Source: Vicinamibacteraceae bacterium | Lineage (GTDB): Bacteria; Acidobacteriota; Vicinamibacteria; Vicinamibacterales; UBA8438 | Assembly (NCBI GenBank): GCA_012271165.1 | Contig: JAAXGX010000001.1 | Span: 1 to 58,396, forward strand | DNA: 58,396 bases | Reading direction: 5' to 3' | Shown: positions 876-11,159 of the stretch, piece by piece | Layout of the letters: each line of letters opens with the position of its first letter | Numbering within the stretch: position 1 is the first letter of the stretch | Notes under the pieces: generated by a model | The model's input: only the letters and a program-made list of their open reading frames with translations | Told to the model about the DNA's origin: nothing | Database searches by the model: none | Position numbers and translations under genes: made by a program

Positions 876-2393
876 ATGCGTGCGAGCGCCTTGCGCCGCG
901 TGGCGGCAGGCTTCGTCCTGCTGCTGTCCGTGCCGGCCGGGGCGCAGCGCGCCGACCTGCGGCTGGTGGACGCCGTGCGGCACGGCGACCGGCAGGCGGT
1001 GAGCACGCTGCTGCGGGCCGGGATCGACGTGAACGCGCGGCAGCCCGACGGGGCCACGGCGCTGCACTGGGCAGCCTACCGGGACGCTCTCGACACCGCG
1101 GACCTGCTGCTCGGAGCCGGCGCCCGCCCGGACGCGGCGAACGAGCTCGGGGTCACGCCCCTCTATCTGGCCTGCGAGAACGGCAGCGCGGCCCTGGTGC
1201 GGCGCCTGCTGGCCGCGGGCGCGGCGCCGAACGCGACGCTGCGCGGCGGCGAGACGGCCCTGATGACCGCCGCGCGCACGGGGAGCGTCGGCGCGGTGAC
1301 CGCGCTCCTGGACCACGGCGCCGACGTGCATGCCCGGGAGACGAAGGAGGGGCAGACCGCCTTGATGTGGGCCGTGTCGCAGCGGCATCCCGCAGTCGTG
1401 CGGGCGCTGCTCGAGGCCGGGGCGGACGTCCGCGCCCGCTCGCGCGTACGTCCCGTGGCGACGGCGAGCTCGCCCCGCACCGGTGCGGCCGAAGGCGTGA
1501 CCGTCATCGACGAGGGCGGGTTCACGCCGCTCCTGTTCGCGGCCCGGCAGGGGGACCTCGCGTCGGCGCGCCTGCTGCTGGCGGCGGGGGCCGACCCGAA
1601 CGATACGGCCCCGTCCGGCACGAGCGCGCTCGTCGTGGCGGCCCACAGCGGGCACGGCGAGCTCGCCGCCCGGCTCCTCGACCAGGGCGCCGACCCGAAC
1701 GCCGCCGGGGCGGGCTACGCGGCGCTGCACGCGGCGGTCCTGCGCGGCGACGCCGACCTCGTCGGCGCCCTGCTGGCTCACGGCGCCGACCCGCACGCCC
1801 GCCTGCAGAACGGCAGCCCGCATGCCCGCTACGGCAAGTTCTTCGCGCTGGAGATGCGCTTGACCGGCGCCACGCCGCTCTTCCTGGCCGCCAAGTACGC
1901 CCGGGCCGACATCATGCGCCGGCTGGCCGCGGCCGGCGCCGACCCGCGCGCGCGTCTCGCCGGCGGCGTGACCCCCCTGATGGCCGCCGCGGGCATGCTC
2001 ACGCCGGGGTTCGTGCAGGCCGGGAACGATCGTCGCGGGCGGGCCATCGACACCGCCGAGATGGAGCTCGCCCTCAGCCAGGACCCGGATCGGCGCCGGC
2101 TCATGAACAGCGGCATCGACGCCGTGCAGGCGGCCGTGGCGCTGGGCGCCGACGTCGACGCCGCGAACGACGACGGCGACACCGCCCTGCACCTCGCGGC
2201 GCATCACGGCTTCAACAGCGTGGTCCGCTACCTGGTCGGCCAGGGCGCCGACCTGCACATGCGGAACGCGCGCGGGCAGACGCCGCTCGACCGGGCGCTG
2301 GGACTCACCGGCCGCGTGCCGGCCAGGAATCCCCTCACCGACACGGACATCGGCACGGCAGACCTGCTCAGGGCATTGGGCGCCAGCGAGTAG
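876..2393 (+). CDS. Secreted ankyrin-repeat protein
   Basis: Signal peptide followed by many G-x-T-[AP]-L ankyrin repeats (GATALHWAA, GVTPLYLA, GETALMTAA, GFTPLLFAA, GDTALHLAA); ATG at 876 after AGGA. Confidence 0.9.
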   Translation: MRASALRRVAAGFVLLLSVPAGAQRADLRLVDAVRHGDRQAVSTLLRAGIDVNARQPDGATALHWAAYRDALDTADLLLGAGARPDAANELGVTPLYLACENGSAALVRRLLAAGAAPNATLRGGETALMTAARTGSVGAVTALLDHGADVHARETKEGQTALMWAVSQRHPAVVRALLEAGADVRARSRVRPVATASSPRTGAAEGVTVIDEGGFTPLLFAARQGDLASARLLLAAGADPNDTAPSGTSALVVAAHSGHGELAARLLDQGADPNAAGAGYAALHAAVLRGDADLVGALLAHGADPHARLQNGSPHARYGKFFALEMRLTGATPLFLAAKYARADIMRRLAAAGADPRARLAGGVTPLMAAAGMLTPGFVQAGNDRRGRAIDTAEMELALSQDPDRRRLMNSGIDAVQAAVALGADVDAANDDGDTALHLAAHHGFNSVVRYLVGQGADLHMRNARGQTPLDRALGLTGRVPARNPLTDTDIGTADLLRALGASE

Positions 2394-2438
2394 CCGGCGG
2401 CCGGCCCGGGAGCCGCCGCGGCATCCCTGCCCGACGCC

Positions 2439-2996
2439 TCAGGCCGGACGCAGGGGCCGGAAGAACGTTCTCAGGTCCTGAACCAGCAGCGCGGGCTCCT
2501 CTATCGCGGGAAAGTGGCCGCCGGTCTCGTGGTGCGACCAGAGCGTCACGTGCTCCGGCACCGCTTCGACCAGCGACCGGGGCGGCCGGGCCCGCGACGT
2601 GATGCCGTAGAAGTCGAAGTACCCCTCCGGCACGCGGCGGCCGCCCGCCGGCCGGTCCTGCTGCCCGCGCGCCGCCGCCAGCGCGGCGCGCATGTTGTCC
2701 AGCGTGAGCCCCACGCTGCGCGGCGCCGGGGGCGTTCTGAACATGCCGGCCGAATAGTAGATGCGCACCGCCGTGCCGATCGAGCCCGTGTGCCAGTAGA
2801 TCGACACCAGCGTCAGAATCTCGTCCCGGGTGAACTTGTTCTCCGGATGCCCCTGGCAGTCGCTCCAGGCGCGCAGCTTCTCGACGACCCAGGCCGCGAG
2901 GCCCGCCGGCGAGTCGGTCAGCCCGTACGCCAGCGATTGCGGCTTCGTGCCCTGGATGAGCTGATACGCCGTCTCCTCGGCCGCGTAGCGATCCAT
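2439..2996 (-). pseudogene. Epoxide hydrolase, C-terminal half (gene split by integrative element)
   Basis: TKPQSLAYGLTDSPAGLAAWVVEK and GGHFPAIEEP (catalytic His) motifs of microsomal-type epoxide hydrolases; begins at the ATG inside the 8-bp direct repeat. Confidence 0.9.
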
Positions 2997-3089
2997 GCTA
3001 CGCTACACAGTCGGCCAGCGTCGTCCAGAGCAGTCCGAGTTAGCCCGTAAATAACGCAGTAGTAGTCATTTATGATTCTCACCCGGGTC

Positions 3090-3118
3090 TTGACTCGAGC
3101 CGGACCGGCCAGTAGAAT
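3090..3118 (+). promoter_or_regulatory. Sigma70-type promoter for the integrase
   Basis: TTGACT-N17-TAGAAT, ending 44 bp upstream of ATG 3163. Confidence 0.7.
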
Positions 3119-3162
3119 CCATCCGACTCCGCCGCATAACGGTGGGCGGACTGGTAGGTATC

Positions 3163-4428
3163 ATGCTCCCGACACGACCCCCGAAGACCAAGCCCCGAGG
3201 CCGGCAGCCCGAACACGCCCTCACCAACGCCTTCGTCCGAAACGTCGGCCGAGCCGGACGCTACTGTGACGGGCACGGCTTGTACCTCGACGTACGGCCC
3301 ACCGGCAGCCGCAGCTGGGTACAGCGGCTCGCCATCCGCGGCCGGCGCCGCGAACTCGGACTCGGCGGCTTCCCGCTCGTCTCGCTCAAGGAGGCCCGCG
3401 AGATCGCCTTCGCCAACCGCAAGCTCGCCCGCTCCGGTGGCGATCCGCTCGCCGAGAAGCGCCGCGCCAGCGGCATGCCCACCTTCGCCGAGGCCGCCGA
3501 GCGGGTCTGGAACGACCTGCGCCCCGGCTGGCGCAACCCGAGGCACGCCCACAACTGGAAGTCGAGCCTCACCCGGTTCGCGTTCCCGCACATCGGCAGG
3601 ATGCCCGTCTGTGACGTGACCAGCGCCGACGTCATCGACACCCTGCGGCGGATCTGGCACGAGCACCCCACCACGGCCCGGCGCGTCCGCCACCGGATCC
3701 GCGCTGTGCTGGAGTGGGCGGTTGCGATGGAGCTTCGCAACGACAACCCTTGTGACCGCATCGGCCCGGCGCTCGGCCCGCAGAACGACATCGTGACGCA
3801 CCGGCAGGCGCTTCCGCATCGCGACGTGGCGGCGGCGCTCGCGGCGGTGAGAGCGTCGGACGCGGCTCCCCTCGTCAAGCTGGCGCTGGAGTTCCTCGCG
3901 TTGACCGCCGTGCGGTCCGGCGACGTGCGCGGGGCGCTGTGGGCTGAGATCGACAGTGCGGACCGCGTGTGGACCATTCCGGCCACGCGCATCAAGATGA
4001 AGCGCGAGCACCGGGTGCCGCTGTGCGGGCGCGCCATCGAGATCCTCGACGCTGCCCGGGCGCTCGGCGACGGCAATCCCCTCGTGTTCCCGACCCCCCG
4101 CGGCAAGCAGTTCACCGGCATGGCCCTGTCGGGTCTGCTCAAGCGCCTGGAGATCGCCGCGGTCCCGCACGGGTTCAGATCGTCGTTCCGGGACTGGGTG
4201 GCCGAGGAGACGGATCACCCGCGCGAGGTCGCCGAGGCGGCGCTGGCCCACCTGGTCCGGAACCCGGTCGAGGCGGCCTACGCGAGATCGGATCTGTTCG
4301 AGCGGCGGCGGCGGCTCATGAACGACTGGGCCGCGTACATCGCGAACACCACCTCCGAGCAATCTACCGACGCCGAACCAGAGCCAGCACAACAGGGAGT
4401 CGGACCGCGGCACCCTGACCCGCGATGA
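3163..4428 (+). CDS. P4-like (IntA family) tyrosine integrase with arm-DNA-binding domain
   Basis: DGHGLYLDV..GSRSW arm domain, LGLGGFPLVSLKEAR; catalytic residues VRSGD, KMKREH, HGFR, LAH, AY all present. Confidence 0.95.
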   Translation: MLPTRPPKTKPRGRQPEHALTNAFVRNVGRAGRYCDGHGLYLDVRPTGSRSWVQRLAIRGRRRELGLGGFPLVSLKEAREIAFANRKLARSGGDPLAEKRRASGMPTFAEAAERVWNDLRPGWRNPRHAHNWKSSLTRFAFPHIGRMPVCDVTSADVIDTLRRIWHEHPTTARRVRHRIRAVLEWAVAMELRNDNPCDRIGPALGPQNDIVTHRQALPHRDVAAALAAVRASDAAPLVKLALEFLALTAVRSGDVRGALWAEIDSADRVWTIPATRIKMKREHRVPLCGRAIEILDAARALGDGNPLVFPTPRGKQFTGMALSGLLKRLEIAAVPHGFRSSFRDWVAEETDHPREVAEAALAHLVRNPVEAAYARSDLFERRRRLMNDWAAYIANTTSEQSTDAEPEPAQQGVGPRHPDPR

Positions 4429-4631
4429 ACCGATCCGATCCCCTCGCTTGAACCACGGCCCGCCCAACGAGTCGAGCGCGGTGGAGATCACGGGCCGACA
4501 TCAGATGAAGTACGGATCGAGCGGCGAGGACATCGAGCGGGACCGGCGAACAGGATCAAGATCCCGGAGAGCGACGAAGGCGATCCAGGTGGAGAGAGAG
4601 GCCGGCGCACGACGATCAGAGGAACACGAAC

Positions 4632-4672
4632 ATGCTGGCTCTCCACAACCGTTGGTAGTGGAGAGCCAGCAT
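4632..4672. repeat. Perfect 15-bp inverted repeat (hairpin) within the element
   Basis: ATGCTGGCTCTCCAC (4632-4646) and GTGGAGAGCCAGCAT (4658-4672). Confidence 0.85.
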
Positions 4673-5347
4673 ACCCCATGTGCTACATGGGACTGGCGGG
4701 GGGCGCCGCCCCCTCGACCCCCGACGAGTAAGATGCGGCGCGTCGCCGCGCCGGTTCGGAGCCCGCTCTCCATGCGGCCGTGGCCGGGCCGTTCGACCAG
4801 CGGAAGGGTGAGCGCCGGGCGGTCCGCGGCGTCCGGCAGCGCACGGTCGCCCACCGCTGTCAACCCGCTGCCGCGGGTCCTCCGCGTGCGCTTCGGCCCT
4901 TACAGGGTGACAGCGGCGACCGACCGTGCGGGAATGGCTGTTGCGGGCCAGCCGGAAGGCTGACCCGCGATCCACTGCCCGTCAGACGCGACGCCTGCGG
5001 CCCGCTCCGTTGTCGCGGAGCATCGGAGCCGAAACCGCATCTACCAGCACGATCTCGCTGATTCGTCCAGTCCGTCTTGAACCGGGATTGGTCATGCGCT
5101 GATCAGCGCCGGCCGGCAGCCCCATGCGTTGCGCGGCAGGTTGTCGAGATCCACGCCGAAGTGGGAGGCGTGCTGGTCGAGGAGGTCTCGCCCGGCCGGA
5201 TGAAGTCCAACCACGTGCGCGATCTCAGACGCCGTCGCAACGTACAGTCCACCGGCGACACGGCACCACGTCGCTGTTTTGCGGCGCTCGGACGTCAAGG
5301 GGCTTCGCCGTCCACTCTCCTACCTACCCGGATAGACGCCGGAAACT

Positions 5348-5794
5348 TCAATTCCCTCGCTCTTCAGATAGGGCAGCAAGCAAGACAACATTCACGATTG
5401 CCGCTGCCGCGTACCCATACCAAGACGAGCTAACCCGCCTGCCCTTCGCAGTCCTCGTGTAGCCAGCCCGGAAGCAGTCAATCTGCTCGTCGGGAATCCC
5501 TGTCATCGCACTCGCCGGAGCCTGCGGGTTGGACGAATGCGCAATAATAGGCATTATCGGAACAAAGAACACGTTGGTGAAGAATCCACCTGTGAACCAT
5601 CCGCCTCTGCCTTGTCTCTCCATGCCCGCAGTCTCACCCAAGGCAGTAGCAGATTGGCAATCGGTCGGTTGGCGTTCGAGAGTCCAACTCCGCGCCATGC
5701 GGATGGCAGACTCCCGGAGTGGTCCTGCATCGACTGGAGCCGTCAAGGAGGTAAGCAACGCGGTAGTCACGACGACCGACTTGACTTTTCTCAT
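5348..5794 (-). CDS. Hypothetical exported/membrane protein (element cargo)
   Basis: GAGGA SD before ATG, signal peptide MRKVKSVVVTTALLTSLTAPVDA, two further hydrophobic segments; visibly more AT-rich than host genes. Confidence 0.65.
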   Translation of the reverse strand: MRKVKSVVVTTALLTSLTAPVDAGPLRESAIRMARSWTLERQPTDCQSATALGETAGMERQGRGGWFTGGFFTNVFFVPIMPIIAHSSNPQAPASAMTGIPDEQIDCFRAGYTRTAKGRRVSSSWYGYAAAAIVNVVLLAALSEERGN

Positions 5795-6023
5795 CACCGT
5801 TCCTCTTCCAAATAAGCACCATATGTGCTCCGGCGATCCAGCGAAATCCCGGACGACCTGCAATTCCCGCATCGCGCCGAGAAACGCGCGGTCCCGACCC
5901 CGCAGTGCAGTGGCGAGTTGGCCGGCTCGTTGCGTGGCGCCCAGAGCGCTCCAGGCAGCGCCCCACTGGCAGAGGCAACCTGAGCAGAGACATGCGCCGC
6001 GGCCCGATCGGCAGGAGACTGCC

Positions 6024-6146
6024 TCACACGACTTCCTCAGCGGCCTGCCGAATGGAGTCCGTCGGGCGCCCGTGATGGGCGTCGGCCTGTTCGGACGTGA
6101 GCTTGGCGGCCGTCAATGCGCACGCGATGGCATGGGTGTCGAACAC
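6024..6146 (-). pseudogene. DUF1640/CCDC90-like N-terminal fragment
   Basis: VFDTHAIACALTAAKLTSEQADA..DSIRQAAE resembles the FDTH..L..A....QA.A N-terminus of DUF1640 proteins; stops early. Confidence 0.5.
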
Positions 6147-6251
6147 AGACCCATGGTACAACGGGTCGTCCCCATCCCCATGCGGCGGAACGGCTGCCTC
6201 GCGCGATTCGTCAACTGTACGAGGAGCCAAGCGGAGCCCCGAGGCCCGATC

Positions 6252-6682
6252 CGTCCGCAGGTCCGCAGCCGATGACGGGCCCGCCGCAGTCCGGCACGAT
6301 GCACAGGCCGGCGGTCCGGTCGCGCCGGTCCGCCGTCACGGTCCGCAGTCCACGCAGTCCGCACTGGGGCGAGGCTCACTGGCTCATCTGGGGCCGGATA
6401 GGGGCTCGCAGGGCAATATGCTGAAGCGCGACGAGCGCAAGGAGCGACGGGTCGTTGCTGCCTACCTTGTGGGGCTGATCGTCATCGTCTGGCTGATTGA
6501 CCAGACGATGATGCAGGGGCACTACACTTGGTTGGCGGTTCGTGTCCCGCTCGCTCTGACTCGCGAGTTGCTCGGTGTGCCGCACGTGTGGTAGGTGCCA
6601 ACCGGCGACGAGTTGGAAGGGCTTCTTGCATGGATGCTACCGCTTGGTCAGTCGGAGGTCCGCGTCCGCAGGTCCGCAGCCG
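6252..6682 (+). repeat. GTCCGCAG repeat cluster including a 20-bp exact direct repeat
   Basis: CGTCCGCAGGTCCGCAGCCG at 6252-6271 and 6663-6682; a further GTCCGCAG at 6341. Confidence 0.8.
6418..6594 (+). CDS. Small hypothetical membrane protein (58 aa)
   Basis: Basic N-terminus followed by hydrophobic helix VVAAYLVGLIVIVWLI. Confidence 0.4.
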   Translation: MLKRDERKERRVVAAYLVGLIVIVWLIDQTMMQGHYTWLAVRVPLALTRELLGVPHVW

Positions 6683-6766
6683 GTGTTCGCTGTCCGCTGG
6701 AATCCGATGGGCAACGATGGACGCAACGAGGGGAACATGCGCCTGTGAAGTGAGTAAGCTATTTAT

Positions 6767-6779
6767 TATCAGTGTGTTA
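6767..6779 (+). promoter_or_regulatory. IHF-consensus site near the right att core
   Basis: TATCAGTGTGTTA matches WATCARNNNNTTR, preceded by an AT tract, 20 bp from the 8-bp core. Confidence 0.6.
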
Positions 6780-6799
6780 CATGGTTTGCGTGCCAGAGT

Positions 6800-7566
6800 T
6801 CCATGCTCTCCCAGTACGCGCGCTCCTCGGCGGTGCGCGGCTCCACGCGCGTGCGCGGCGGCTGACCGGGGGTCGTGACGCCGATGACCCGTTCGGGGGC
6901 GCGCGCGGCGATCCGGCTGCCCACCTGGCTGCCCCAGTCACTGCCGTACGTGCCGAACCGGTCGTAGCCCAGCCTGTCCATCAACCCGATCCACAGCTCG
7001 GGAATGCTGTCCGGCGTGAAGTCCGCGAGCGGCTCGCCGGAGAAGCCGTACCCGGGCAGCGACGGCACGATGACATGGAACGCCTCGGACGCGTCGGCGC
7101 CGTGCCCCTCGGGGTCGACGAGGGCCGGCACCGACGGCAGCATCTCCCAGAACGTCCCCGGATAGCCGTGGGTCATGATCAGCGGCACCGCGGAGGCGTT
7201 GCGCGATCGGGCATGGATGAAGTGAATCCTGTGCCCGTCGACCACCGCCGTGTAGTGCTCGAAACGGTTCAGCGCCGCCTCGTGCGTGCGCCAGTCGTAC
7301 TCGTCCCGCCAGTAGGCGATCAGCTCCTGGAGGTAGGCGCGATCGGTGCCCATCGACCACGGCTCTCCGGTCGCGGCGGGCGGCCAGCGCGTGGCGGCGA
7401 GGCGGCGGCGGAGATCGGCCAGCTCTTCATCGCTGACGCTGATCCTGAATGGCCGCACGCCGGACGGGTCCTGTGCTGCGCCGGGCGCGGGGGCCGCCGC
7501 GGGCCAGGCGCCAGCGGCGCCGATGAGCTTGAGCACGGTCCGCCGGCCTATCGTCGTCTGCTGCAT
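6800..7566 (-). pseudogene. Epoxide hydrolase, N-terminal half with Tat-like signal (gene split by integrative element)
   Basis: GRRTVLK Tat-like motif, EHN domain (VRPFRISV..L.DLRRRLAATRWP, YDWR), HGYPG, PSLPGYGFS, GSDWG nucleophile elbow; reads 10 foreign codons into the element and stops at 6769. Confidence 0.9.
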
Positions 7567-7790
7567 GTCATCGACCCCTTCCCCTGCGCCGCAGCCTCAC
7601 GCGCCGCGGCGTCTGGCCCAATCGGTTGCCAGAGGATACAGGCATGCCGTCGACGGGTCGGCGGGCGGCGGCGAGCCGTTCGTGCCGGCACACGCCGGGA
7701 TGCGCCCGCCGCGTTTCGGCCGCATGCACGTTCGGCCGCATACAATGGAGCCGTGCGATTTCCCATTCCCGATGATCAGGAGGAGCGTCG

Positions 7791-9536
7791 ATGAGGCTGG
7801 CATCCGGGCGTTCGGCGAATCGGCAGGTCGGCGCGGCGGCCGGACTCTTCGTGGCGGGGCTGGCGCTCGCCGCCGGCGGGCCCGCGGGCCAGGCGCAGCA
7901 GCAGGCGCAGGGCCACGGCTACAGCCGGCCGGCCCGCAGCCCGCACGGCAGCCGGTCCGAGGTGATCGCGCCGCACGGGATGGTGGCGGCCAGCCAGCCG
8001 CTCGCCGCCCAGGTCGGCCTCGACATCCTCAAGGCCGGCGGGAACGCGGTCGACGCGGCGGTCGCCGTCAACGCCGTGCTGGGCCTGGTGGAGCCGCACA
8101 TGAACGGCGTCGGCGGCGACCTGTTCGCCTTGGTGTGGCACGCCGAGACCGAGCAGCTCTACGCCCTGAACGCGACCGGCCGCGCGCCGCACGCCATCAG
8201 CCGTGAGACGCTCGTCCGCCAGGGCTACGAGCGGATGCCGGGCGACGGTCCGCTCACCTGGACCGTGCCCGGCGCGGTCGACGGCTGGCAGGAGCTCCTG
8301 GACCGCTTCGGCACGCTGCCGCTGGCCGACGTGCTGGCCCCGGCCATCGCCTACGCCCGCAACGGCTTCCCGGTCAGCGAGATCATCGCCGGCCAGTGGA
8401 ACGCCGCGGCGACGGCGCTGGCCGAGTGGCCCGACTCGGCCGCCACCTACCTGCCCGGCGGGCGGGCGCCCCTCCCCGGCGACGTGTTCCGCAACCCGCG
8501 CCTCGCCGCCACCTACGAGGCCGTGGCGGAGGGCGGCCGCGACGCGTTCTACCGCGGCGACATCGCCCGCCGCATCGTGGCGTTCAGCGAAGGCAACGGC
8601 GGCTACTTCACGCTGGCCGACTTCGAGGACCACACGTCCGTCTGGGTCGAGCCGGTCACCACGAACTACCGCGGCTACGACGTGTGGGAGGTTCCTCCCA
8701 ACAGCTCCGGCATCCTCGCGCTGATGATCCTGAACCTGATGGAGGGCTACGACATCGCCGCGCTCGGCCACAACAGCGCCGACGCCCTGCACCTGTTCGC
8801 CGAGGCGAAGAAGCTGGTCTGGGCCGACCGCGACACCTACGTGGCCGACGCCGACGCCAACCCGCTGCCGACGCGCCAGCTCATCTCGAAGCCGTACGCG
8901 GAGGCGCGGCGCAAGCTGATCGATCCCGAGCGGGCCGCGACCACGGTCACGCCCGGCCGGCCGTTCGAGCAGAGCGAGACCGTCTACCTCACGGTGGTCG
9001 ACAAGGACCGCAACGCCGTCTCGTTGATAGAGAGCATCTTCGGCAGCTTCGGCTCCAAGGTCGTGCCCGGCGACGTCGGCTTCGCCCTGCAGAACCGCGG
9101 CAGCGGCTTCTCGCTGGAGGAGGGCCACCTCAACGCGCTCGCGCCGCACAAGCGCTCGCTGCACACCAACATGCCCGGCTTCGTGACCCGCAACGGCGAG
9201 CCGTTCCTGTCGTTCGGCGTCATGGGCGGCCCGATGCAGCCGCAGGGGCACTGGCAGGTGCTGTCGAACATCATCGACTTCGGGATGAACCTGCAGGAGG
9301 CCGGCGACGCGGCGCGGCTGCGCCACCTCCCGAGCTACCGCCCGGGCGGCACCCTGGCCGTCGAGCCGGGCATCTCGGACGCGGCCGTCGCCGAGCTGCG
9401 GCGCCGCGGCCACCACGTCGTGCGGGCCGGCGGCGGCGGCATGGGCGGCTACCAGGCGATCATGATCAACCCCGAGACCGGCATGCTGCACGGCGGGACC
9501 GACCCGCGCAAGGACGGCCAGGTGGTGGGGTACTGA
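7791..9536 (+). CDS. ggt: Gamma-glutamyltransferase
   Basis: GGNAVDAAVA, TVPGAVDGW, catalytic Thr in ETVYLTVVD, GVMGG, DPRKDG; signal peptide; AGGAG SD. Confidence 0.93.
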   Translation: MRLASGRSANRQVGAAAGLFVAGLALAAGGPAGQAQQQAQGHGYSRPARSPHGSRSEVIAPHGMVAASQPLAAQVGLDILKAGGNAVDAAVAVNAVLGLVEPHMNGVGGDLFALVWHAETEQLYALNATGRAPHAISRETLVRQGYERMPGDGPLTWTVPGAVDGWQELLDRFGTLPLADVLAPAIAYARNGFPVSEIIAGQWNAAATALAEWPDSAATYLPGGRAPLPGDVFRNPRLAATYEAVAEGGRDAFYRGDIARRIVAFSEGNGGYFTLADFEDHTSVWVEPVTTNYRGYDVWEVPPNSSGILALMILNLMEGYDIAALGHNSADALHLFAEAKKLVWADRDTYVADADANPLPTRQLISKPYAEARRKLIDPERAATTVTPGRPFEQSETVYLTVVDKDRNAVSLIESIFGSFGSKVVPGDVGFALQNRGSGFSLEEGHLNALAPHKRSLHTNMPGFVTRNGEPFLSFGVMGGPMQPQGHWQVLSNIIDFGMNLQEAGDAARLRHLPSYRPGGTLAVEPGISDAAVAELRRRGHHVVRAGGGGMGGYQAIMINPETGMLHGGTDPRKDGQVVGY

Positions 9537-9548
9537 CGAGCGAGCCTT

Positions 9549-9710
9549 CTACTCGACGTCGATCCGGACCCGTTCCGCGAGCTGCAGTTCGTCGAGGATC
9601 TGGCGCAGGTCCGCCAGGAGCCCGTCGGTTCCCGTGCCGTCGGCCGTGAGATTGAAGGTGACACCCACCTTCAGATCGCGGCCCATGCGGAGCCTGGGCA
9701 GCAACCTCGA
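9549..9710 (-). pseudogene. C-terminal fragment resembling DUF499-family ATPases
   Basis: Manual translation RLLPRLRMGRDLKVGVTFNLTADG..LADLRQILDELQLAERVRIDVE-stop; family assignment is from recall only. Confidence 0.4.
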
Positions 9711-9866
9711 TGATCTCGTCGAGATCGAGCACGTCGACGAGCAGTGGCGACTGCTTGGCCACGATGATCTGCCGGTCGACCGCGAGCGCCTTGATCATGC
9801 TGCCAACCAGCGCGATGGCGGCCGGGTGCAACCCAAGCTCGGGCTCGTCCAGCAGCAGATCAGCTC
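9706..9866 (-). pseudogene. AAA_21/ABC-type ATPase internal fragment (Walker B region)
   Basis: LLLDEPELGLHP and QIIVAKQSPLLVD present; no Walker A. Confidence 0.7.
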
Positions 9867-9894
9867 GACCGCTGAACATCTTCCTGCCCGCGGC

Positions 9895-10420
9895 TGAGAT
9901 CCCGACTCCCGAGGGCCAGCGCGAACCGACCGACGGCGACACCGGCGACGCTGACCCGTTCGCGGCGCTCAAGGCGGATCTCGCGAAGCTCCGCGGCGGC
10001 GTGGCTCTCGTTGAAACGATGGCGGGCGGCTACTCGGACAAGGGCGGCCGGCCGGATTTGGACTGGAAGCCGCGGCGGATCGGCGCTGACCCGCCGGCGG
10101 CCCTGAATGAGATCCGGACCGCGGCGGCGCTGACCGTGTTCGGCGCGTGCGGCGTACCGCCTTCGCTGTTCACGCTCCCGGCCGATGGCACGGGCCAGCG
10201 CGAAGCCTGGCGGCGGTTCCTGCACGGCTCGGTGTCGCCCGTGGCGCGGCTGGTCGAGGCCGAGCTGCGGGACAAGCTCGATGTGCCGGACCTGGCGCTG
10301 AGCTTCGATGGGTTGTAGGCGGCAGACCTGCAGGGCAGGGCGCGGGCCTGGCGCTCGCTGGTGGGTCCCGAGGCCAAGATCGACGCGACTGAGGCGAGAC
10401 GGCTCGCGGGGCTATCGTGA
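9895..10420 (+). pseudogene. Probable phage portal protein C-terminal fragment with in-frame stop
   Basis: VFGACGVPPSLF, VSPVARLVEAELRDKL, then TAG 10316-10318 and in-frame continuation AADLQGRARA..EARRLAGL to TGA 10420. Confidence 0.6.
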
Positions 10421-11082: not shown

Positions 11083-11159
11083 TGGTCGGGATGACTGGAT
11101 TTGAACCAGCGACCCCCTGACCCCCAGTCAGGTGCGCTACCAGACTGCGCCACATCCCG
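11083..11159 (-). tRNA. tRNA-Pro(GGG)
   Basis: CGGGATG/CATCCCG acceptor stem, CCTGA-CTGGGGG-TCAGG anticodon arm, GGTTCAAATCC T arm, encoded CCA. Confidence 0.97.

Follow-up and report, generated by a model that had tools for sequence, protein, structure and literature searches.

The epoxide hydrolase gene and its insert

The subject of this analysis is an epoxide hydrolase (EH) gene of a Vicinamibacteraceae bacterium that is interrupted by a small element encoding a tyrosine integrase. The locus occupies positions 2439–7566 of the 58,396-bp stretch of DNA that was analysed as a whole and is referred to below as the window. Both parts of the gene lie on the minus strand. The N-terminal half (6769–7566) is an open reading frame (ORF) of 265 aa, which matches the Pfam families EHN (PF06441, E = 3.7e-39) and Abhydrolase_1 (PF00561, E = 1.7e-12) and could be aligned with 12 uninterrupted homologues. 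Its residues 1–255 are host-derived and end in ...AYWESM; the frame then runs through 10 element-encoded residues (ELWHANHVTH) to a stop codon at 6769–6771. The C-terminal half (2439–2996), likewise open, encodes 185 aa and starts at a Met codon located inside the 8-bp core described below. No Pfam family matches it, yet over its full length it can be aligned, free of frameshifts, with the C-terminal part of the 12 uninterrupted homologues; its identity to the corresponding part of such homologues from four genomes of the same genus is 83–86%. The domain layout, EHN followed by an alpha/beta-hydrolase core, is that of the microsomal-type EHs, the C half aligning with the rest of the fold. This family name is sequence-based, and several sources name the homologues otherwise, e.g. 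'pimeloyl-ACP methyl ester carboxylesterase'.

Of the motifs HGYP, GSDWG and GGHF, the first two belong to the N half and the third to the C half, and all are conserved in the 12 homologues; we take them to play the catalytic roles of the HGXP, Asp nucleophile and His motifs of EHs. Judging from the sequence, the insertion would truncate the enzyme after residue 255, leave the nucleophilic Asp and the triad His on different fragments and so put this EH paralogue out of action. Both halves are presumably inactive, the C half being without a promoter and the N half keeping the Asp nucleophile, lacking the His and ending in 10 foreign residues. Further full-length EH paralogues are present in the host genome. 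The tail ELWHANHVTH itself resembles ..ELWSV.. of distant EH paralogues and was considered as a captured EH fragment; this candidate was rejected, the resemblance extending over only three residues with no DNA similarity past the core.

The borders of the insert can be placed to the base. In a 14-row alignment the uninterrupted homologues read ...EERAYWESMDRYAAEETAYQ..., the match of the N half ending after ...WESM and the C half beginning at MDRY. These homologues, as well as an uninterrupted allele of ∼98% identity (P0121), read through the junction as ...AYWESMDRYAAEE.... The corresponding homologue DNA is TGGGAG-AGCATGGA-(C)CGCTAC, with a single 8-mer, and therefore exactly one copy of the latter belongs to the EH gene. 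In the window, TGGGAG-AGCATGGA runs into the element at one junction, and at the other the element is followed by AGCATGGA-TCGCTAC. The two copies of this core, TCCATGCT (AGCATGGA on the gene strand), are located at 2992–2999, on the integrase-proximal (int-proximal) side, and at 6800–6807, on the integrase-distal (int-distal) side, and the EH halves are parted by the 3,800 bp of foreign DNA between them. They are the only copies on either strand of the window. Two copies per se are unremarkable, this number being reached in 21 of 100 shuffles; that both coincide exactly with the two breakpoints of a single gene is not a matter of chance. When one repeat unit (3,808 bp) is removed, the result is a protein of 439 aa, colinear with the homologues and equal in length to two of them (P0002 and P0004), which contains both GSDWG and GGHF. 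The first-pass annotation of this DNA had described an integrase element splitting an EH gene, with an 8-mer at both breakpoints and excision restoring a 439-aa frame, and in these respects it is confirmed by the ORFs, the homologue alignment and the core positions.

The junctions were checked in Logan contigs of four runs, of which X1 is probably that of the source sample, X5 and X7 are coral-reef metagenomes from a study other than that of X1, and X9 is a sponge metagenome from a third study. Contigs of X1 (covering 2250–3381 and 5931–7222) and X7 (2757–3192 and 6575–6992) bridge both junctions, and a contig of X5 (2483–3362) bridges the int-proximal one, with 0–2 differences. Since independent assemblies from two studies bridge both junctions, the split locus is not a misassembly. 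Neither a skip from 2999 to 6807 (3,808 bp), expected of an empty site, nor the back-joint of a circle was found in the contigs of the four runs, in which rare variants are dropped.

Integrase and anatomy of the element

The insert is a minimal site-specific integrative element, the integrase gene being the only gene that could be recognised in it. The integrase (3142–4428, plus strand; 428 aa) consists of three domains, with Pfam matches to Arm-DNA-bind_3 (PF13356, E = 7.5e-19), Phage_int_M (PF22022, E = 2.4e-25) and Phage_integrase (PF00589, E = 3.6e-11), and also matches phrog_1 (E = 4e-52) and NF007246; its N-terminal and central domains match solved structures of CP4-like integrases. The closest phage integrases are at most about 40% identical to it. 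Residues R258, K285, H343-x-x-R346, H370 and Y380 are invariant in an alignment of nine integrase sequences sharing 38–91% identity, in agreement with the first-pass annotation, and presumably serve in catalysis as the R, K, H-x-x-R, H/W and Y residues of tyrosine integrases do. The three domains, the catalytic residues and the identical short core at both junctions are those of a P4/CP4-57-like integrase. For such integrases the 3' end of a tRNA or tmRNA gene is the typical, not an obligatory, target; the nearest tRNA gene in the window is located at 11083–11159.

The host genome (G000), a metagenome-assembled genome (MAG) of 3.7 Mb in 217 contigs that is 72% complete, contains 16 matches to the integrase family on 11 contigs (C33, C60, C176, C22, C97, C37, C8, C114, C190, C126 and the window's own C68). 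Many of the 16 are fragments at contig ends; the family acts as a multi-copy repeat and probably breaks the assembly. Two distant paralogues of the same genome (45–46% identity) adjoin tRNA-Glu and tRNA-Arg, and on the contigs of the closer ones (58–67%) no tRNA was found.

Comparison with the three closest relatives of the element (L028, L029 and L058; see below) separates conserved from variable parts. Conserved are the int-proximal arm, the integrase gene, a block following the latter and ∼130 bp at the int-distal end; the middle varies. The int-proximal arm (3000–3141, plus strand) is AT-richer and contains repeated (G/A)TCC(A/G)-type motifs; from 2983 onward the window is 87.6% identical to L028. 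Comparable AT-rich stretches lie upstream of eight paralogous integrase genes, and the arm probably holds arm-type sites together with the integrase promoter. The int-distal arm (6672–6799, plus strand), which includes a motif at 6713–6736, is 70–78% identical to the ends of the L028, L029 and L058 elements. An inverted repeat at the int-proximal junction, GTAGCG-N10-CGCTAC, was considered as a core-binding site; it is shifted and weaker in L028 and stays only a hint.

The block conserved after the integrase gene (about 4612–4960, with its end at about 4790–4960) begins ∼200 nt past the integrase stop codon and opens with two hairpins (4635–4669 and 4674–4692, plus strand), an inverted repeat being part of them; they are retained in alignments with C114, L028, L029 and L058. 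Their stems vary between copies and yet stay paired, seven pairs showing changes on both sides (RNAalifold, five sequences). An Rfam search of 2400–7600 yielded no family, only two sub-threshold matches to miRNA models on a hairpin. The hairpin block is regarded here as a candidate oriT-like site, replication origin or RNA. Contig depth over the block was 6–16 times that of the flanks in the four metagenome runs, so the block is common to many elements.

The remaining part (4800–6671) is variable cargo, with a G+C content that falls to 0.56–0.63 around 5250–5850 and no recognised family; it is not conserved in L028, L029 and L058 and is partly replaced in run X9. Most of it shows little coding signal by codon-position G+C. 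A possible membrane or secreted protein of 174 aa is encoded by an ORF at 5348–5872 (minus strand), and a small hydrophobic ORF of 58 aa, from the ATG at 6419 (6419–6594, plus strand), has the clearest codon-position G+C signal of the cargo and belongs to no recognised family. In the 2.4 kb beyond the integrase gene, none of the 37 distinct cargo ORFs scanned reached the accepted thresholds for a family of Pfam, PHROGs or NCBIfam, excisionases and regulators included, with room left for a novel small factor; the best sub-threshold matches, to YnaL (E = 0.039) and to a PHROG (E = 0.081), were taken as noise. One cargo query in Atlas retrieved 'hypothetical protein' clusters only, and the family scans of the element ORFs revealed no relaxase family. 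The cargo also carries a 23-nt direct repeat (22 of 23 positions identical) at 6252–6274 and 6663–6685 with tandem GTCCGCAG units in it, further units of which are found at 6320–6350. The direct repeat is not conserved in L028, L029 and L058, and these sequences are putative protein-binding sites.

Landing sites of related elements

Related integrase loci were gathered from species-representative genomes (59 loci) and metagenome contigs (11 loci). An EH half was found within the fetched flanks of none of these 70 loci. A tRNA gene is present within 700 bp upstream of the match at only four of the 70. The protein-gene target had been called unusual in the first-pass annotation, and the site is indeed not a tRNA gene; such a target is, in view of the latter count, not unusual within this integrase clade.

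Three of the loci (L028, L029 and L058) encode integrases that are about 90% identical to that of the window. The closest element, L028 (integrase 90% identical at the amino acid level; 87.6% nucleotide identity over 2983–4827), measures 3,781 bp from core to core and has the TCCATGCT core at both ends. Its flanks are the two parts of a paralogous integrase gene (60–70% identical) split at about residue 139–143, and the empty site would read ...NWWRS-M-ERYAFPRIG... across the junction. L029 and L058 agree with L028 in the int-distal arm, the core and the integrase-gene flank; their int-proximal ends are disturbed by further insertions. A search of 401 genomes of the order with the int-distal arm motif gave seven matches, all within the family of the window. 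At two of these, L133 (in genome G011) and L134 (G020), the core follows 87 nt past the arm motif and leads into ...HAHNWWRSM of an integrase gene; L134 is identical in sequence to L058 over the 190 nt shown and the two were counted once. Distinct elements with the TCCATGCT core thus number five, four of them in integrase genes and one in the EH gene.

The arms at L135, L136 and L138 are sister arms with another core and three different flanks, and L137 also lacks the TCCATGCT core. L135, L136 and L138 (G061, G099 and G105, respectively) have the same internal motif and another junction sequence, ..GGAAGCCCTGGAAG, which suggests that core specificity diversifies within the family.

Five further loci (L059–L063), from one or two Acidobacteriota MAGs, carry arm-plus-integrase modules (1,393 bp) that are ∼97% identical and sit in five places, at about 7760–7880 of each locus. 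At least three of the flanks encode a permease-like motif, ...LTLALG(I/L), which suggests a further sub-family directed at a coding motif that is conserved in a gene family of many copies; the remainder of the permease was not found within 9 kb at the far ends. In the host genome, two integrase paralogues, at L129 (C60, about 8168–8542) and on C37 (on the upstream side of the integrase gene), abut near-identical host sequence encoding the tail of an HNH-like protein, ...RRHHRAVHEEGF..., and this is either one gene hit in two strain variants or a pair of paralogues. The C60 element is larger, and one of its ORFs, of 990 aa, weakly matches a relaxase (E = 2.9e-4, below the cutoff). At L130 (C97, 663–846) a gene for a PQQ-dependent dehydrogenase (Pfam PQQ, E = 6e-187) ends with its stop codon immediately before the arm of an integrase paralogue, the site there being the 3' end of a protein gene.

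The EH gene as a probable look-alike target

The site found in the integrase genes, AGCATGGA-A-CG-G-TACGC, agrees with that of the EH gene, AGCATGGA-T-CG-C-TACGC, at 15 of 17 bases (in full, AGCATGGAACGGTACGC in the integrase gene and AGCATGGATCGCTACGC in the EH gene). At the protein level, S-M-E-R-Y of the integrase genes corresponds to S-M-D-R-Y of the EH. The pattern AGCATGGANCGNTACGC has 28 matches in 104 genomes of the family as opposed to one for the reversed control. Among the 28 are 25 uninterrupted integrase genes, matched at precisely the motif given above (five with a nearby stop codon or frameshift), two intact EH homologues and the window junction. The integrase of the element itself reads ...HNWKSSLTRF... 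at the corresponding spot, and the core is absent from it.

We consider it probable that the EH insertion is a secondary hit, at a look-alike site, by a P4/CP4-57-like element; no regulated or host-used excision was seen. The normal landing site of the sub-family would be the central-domain coding region of the paralogous integrase genes of other elements, at ...NW[W/I][R/K]SM|ERYAFPRIG, which the EH codons S-M-D-R-Y happen to copy. As a result of this mimicry the EH gene may have been hit as a secondary attB. The 3.8-kb element would have entered the EH gene, which encodes a Tat signal, by conservative site-specific recombination across the 8-bp overlap AGCATGGA, a mode of integration that accounts for one copy of the overlap at each junction. 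By analogy with other tyrosine recombinases, strands would be exchanged across the overlap with the arms serving as accessory-site regions, and recombination between the two junction sites would lead to excision and to exact regeneration of the EH gene. Excision would probably need a directionality factor, which might be encoded by a small ORF that escaped recognition or come in trans from one of the many sister elements. Integration into rival integrase genes may benefit the element.

Several observations weigh against this interpretation. Only five instances of the core are known, from related genomes, and L029, L058 and L133 were each seen at one junction only. In run X9 a related strain was found whose EH gene is occupied at this very site by a diverged element, both junctions of which were observed. 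One X9 contig (1,356 nt) covers 2282–3004 with 20 differences and 3 gaps (about 97% identity over the C half), has 101 unrelated letters in place of 3004–3105 and continues through 3105–3272 with 13 differences; a second contig bridges the other junction (6713–7309), and a third swaps 5247–5826 for 1,314 letters. Accordingly, the EH site is either a recurrent target or the site of an old insertion that has been kept. The C half of the X9 strain (P0123) differs from that of the window by D2E, A31T, the deletion of one Ala and A145E, and 10 of the 11 listed, best-supported X9 differences in the halves are at third positions and synonymous (binomial, 1.3e-4). If the two strains share one old insertion, the split gene has been under purifying selection, pointing to a retained function. 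If the look-alike site was entered on two separate occasions, the synonymous differences predate the insertions. We lean towards separate events, as suggested by the greater divergence of the element than of the host gene and by the base that follows the core at the int-proximal junction (giving Asp or Glu).

The comparison that counts most is that with the uninterrupted allele P0121 (415 aa), which comes from another assembly and falls into the same 90% cluster as the N half. Compared to the EH of the window, its N part matches at 251 of 255 residues, and its C part shows no mismatch and 24 gap columns, which represent a 23-residue internal deletion (IYWHTGSIGTAVRIYYSAGMFRT) within a conserved stretch and a single Ala. 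At the junction P0121 fits either precise excision or a lineage that was never hit. Since P0121 is without this conserved stretch and the genome contains other full-length EH paralogues, this EH copy may be dispensable. The deletion itself is either a real loss in a dispensable paralogue or an assembly fault of the 2,345-nt contig.

Alternative explanations

The first-pass annotation had left two readings side by side, a regulated on/off switch and a secondary-site insertion. The second is strengthened by the four of five core-sharing elements that reside in integrase genes and by the 15/17 resemblance, and for regulation no positive support emerged. In a reversible switch of the active-lysogeny kind, excision would turn on a periplasmic detoxification enzyme in some cells or under some conditions; precedents for a switch of this kind are the comK, hlb, spsM and mutS elements. 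Neither EH half has a further lesion, the integrase is intact, the same gene is split at the same site in two diverged strains with differences that are nearly all synonymous, and P0121 has the uninterrupted form expected after precise excision. Exact restoration of the frame, in turn, is no evidence of a switch, because any conservative site-specific recombination gives it. Against a switch, the sub-family usually resides elsewhere and the EH gene is not its regular attB (0 of 70 loci EH-flanked), and the scanned cargo ORFs include no family of directionality factors or regulators. In addition, the X9 element has diverged more than the host gene (13 differences in 168 nt of the integrase 5' region, with a 100-nt arm and cargo replaced, compared to 20 differences and 3 gaps over 2282–3004), as fits two insertions, and the loss of 23 conserved residues from P0121, next to other EH paralogues in the genome, hints at dispensability. 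We therefore regard a switch as unlikely, if the best of the alternatives.

Considerably less probable is a transposon-like insertion by a tyrosine recombinase of low specificity, where the 8-bp repeat would be a target duplication at an essentially random site. A multi-copy family, with 16 matches on 11 contigs and, in one MAG, five modules of ∼97% identity in five places, would suit such a mechanism. However, the same 8-bp core is present at all five instances, the host flanks are alike in seven of the nine bases after it, and the five multi-copy modules also abut similar flanks, all of which speaks for a site-specific choice.

It is conceivable, albeit very improbable, that the two EH halves, each translated by itself, come together as an active enzyme of two pieces, the insertion being neutral. 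The C half does begin with an ATG inside the core, and the X9 differences follow the pattern of purifying selection, but no ribosome-binding motif is apparent by eye upstream of this ATG, the C half would be without the Tat signal carried by the N half, and no other split EH of this kind is found among the 120 relatives listed. Finally, an assembly chimera, in which an integrase contig was joined to the EH gene, can practically be discounted: even though the many integrase paralogues of a fragmented MAG could mislead the assembler, the junctions are bridged by the contigs of X1, X7 and X5 and are base-exact against the homologues.

Relationship to known elements

With the P4/CP4-57 (IntA/IntS-like) islands the element shares the domain layout and catalytic residues of the integrase, the position of the integrase gene near one end, an AT-rich arm and a short identical core. 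It differs from them in the lack of a tRNA site, in its tiny size, in the absence of recognised excisionase, replication, mobilisation or phage genes and in a site identity of just 8 bp. Because the identity between the sites is limited to these 8 bp, the element does not rebuild the end of the target gene.

Gene-interrupting elements of a developmental kind include the skin element in sigK and the nifD element. Others are found in comK of Listeria (a prophage), in hlb (Sa3int), in spsM (SPbeta) and in mutS of Vibrio. In common with such active-lysogeny and developmental elements, the one described here lies inside an ORF that precise excision would rebuild. The former elements have a fixed, regular attB, an excision shown to be linked to conditions and a known control of directionality, whereas the EH site is atypical for the present element and neither excision nor a control gene was seen.

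Integrase clades dedicated to a protein-coding gene have been described as well: islands with dusA-specific integrases have been reported from more than 200 bacteria, where they occupy the 5' end of this gene (Farrugia et al. 2015, PMC4482086). The likeness consists in an integrase clade with one fixed site in a protein-coding gene instead of a tRNA gene; in our case, unlike in the dusA islands, the regular target would be the integrase gene of another element, and the EH gene is hit destructively in its middle. The archaeal 'suicidal' integrases of the SSV type have the attP within the integrase gene of the element itself, which is split upon integration (PMC7253208). A recombination site within an integrase ORF that is split by integration is thus common to both, but here the attB-like site belongs to the integrase gene of a resident element and the incoming integrase stays whole.

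Nesting of integrative mobilizable elements in genes of integrative and conjugative elements is a familiar phenomenon. Integrative mobilizable elements are small, bear an integrase and insert site-specifically into other mobile elements (PMC5704250, PMC5357655). In contrast to these, the present element has no relaxase or known oriT, the hairpins being a candidate for the latter, and the target is the integrase gene itself.

A search of open-access full text retrieved no paper linking epoxide hydrolase with attB, integrase and excision in bacteria, and no bacterial element family with a regular site in the integrase gene of another element, the SSV type of archaea being the nearest analogue of the latter. 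Protein-gene-targeting integrase clades and gene-rebuilding elements are already known; more novel is the habit of targeting integrase genes, as judged from the five known elements with this core, all from related genomes. For the EH gene the insertion would amount to ordinary insertional inactivation, with the tempting reading as a switch losing its appeal and the odd target probably explained by the 15/17 resemblance. More broadly, this integrase clade of sponge- and reef-associated bacteria with high G+C content appears to have mostly given up tRNA genes in favour of coding motifs conserved in multi-copy gene families, such as those of the integrases of sister elements and, probably, of a permease. 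If so, this would account for the high copy numbers and nested arrays of such elements, and the occupied and empty sites would be natural attP/attB-like pairs on which changes in the specificity of tyrosine integrases could be studied.

As a tentative proposal, on which we would not insist, the elements with the TCCATGCT core may constitute an undescribed guild of minimal, integrase-only elements homing into a conserved motif in the integrase genes of their rivals. The EH gene would be collateral of mimicry, and two or more diverged strains would have kept the insertion as a null allele that is both reversible and selectable. Were this true, the guild would knock out rival integrases and gain many landing sites per genome.

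Genomic neighbourhood

The neighbours of the locus encode an ankyrin-repeat protein and a gamma-glutamyltranspeptidase. Neither was found in the 1.5-kb flanks of the same-genus EH homologues of 73–79% identity, for which reason the latter are called homologues and not proven orthologues. Between the gamma-glutamyltranspeptidase gene and a tRNA-Pro gene (11083–11159), the region 9466–10318 contains the C-terminal end of an AAA_21 ATPase and a piece with a below-cutoff match to a phage portal protein; these fragments look like debris of another integrated element.

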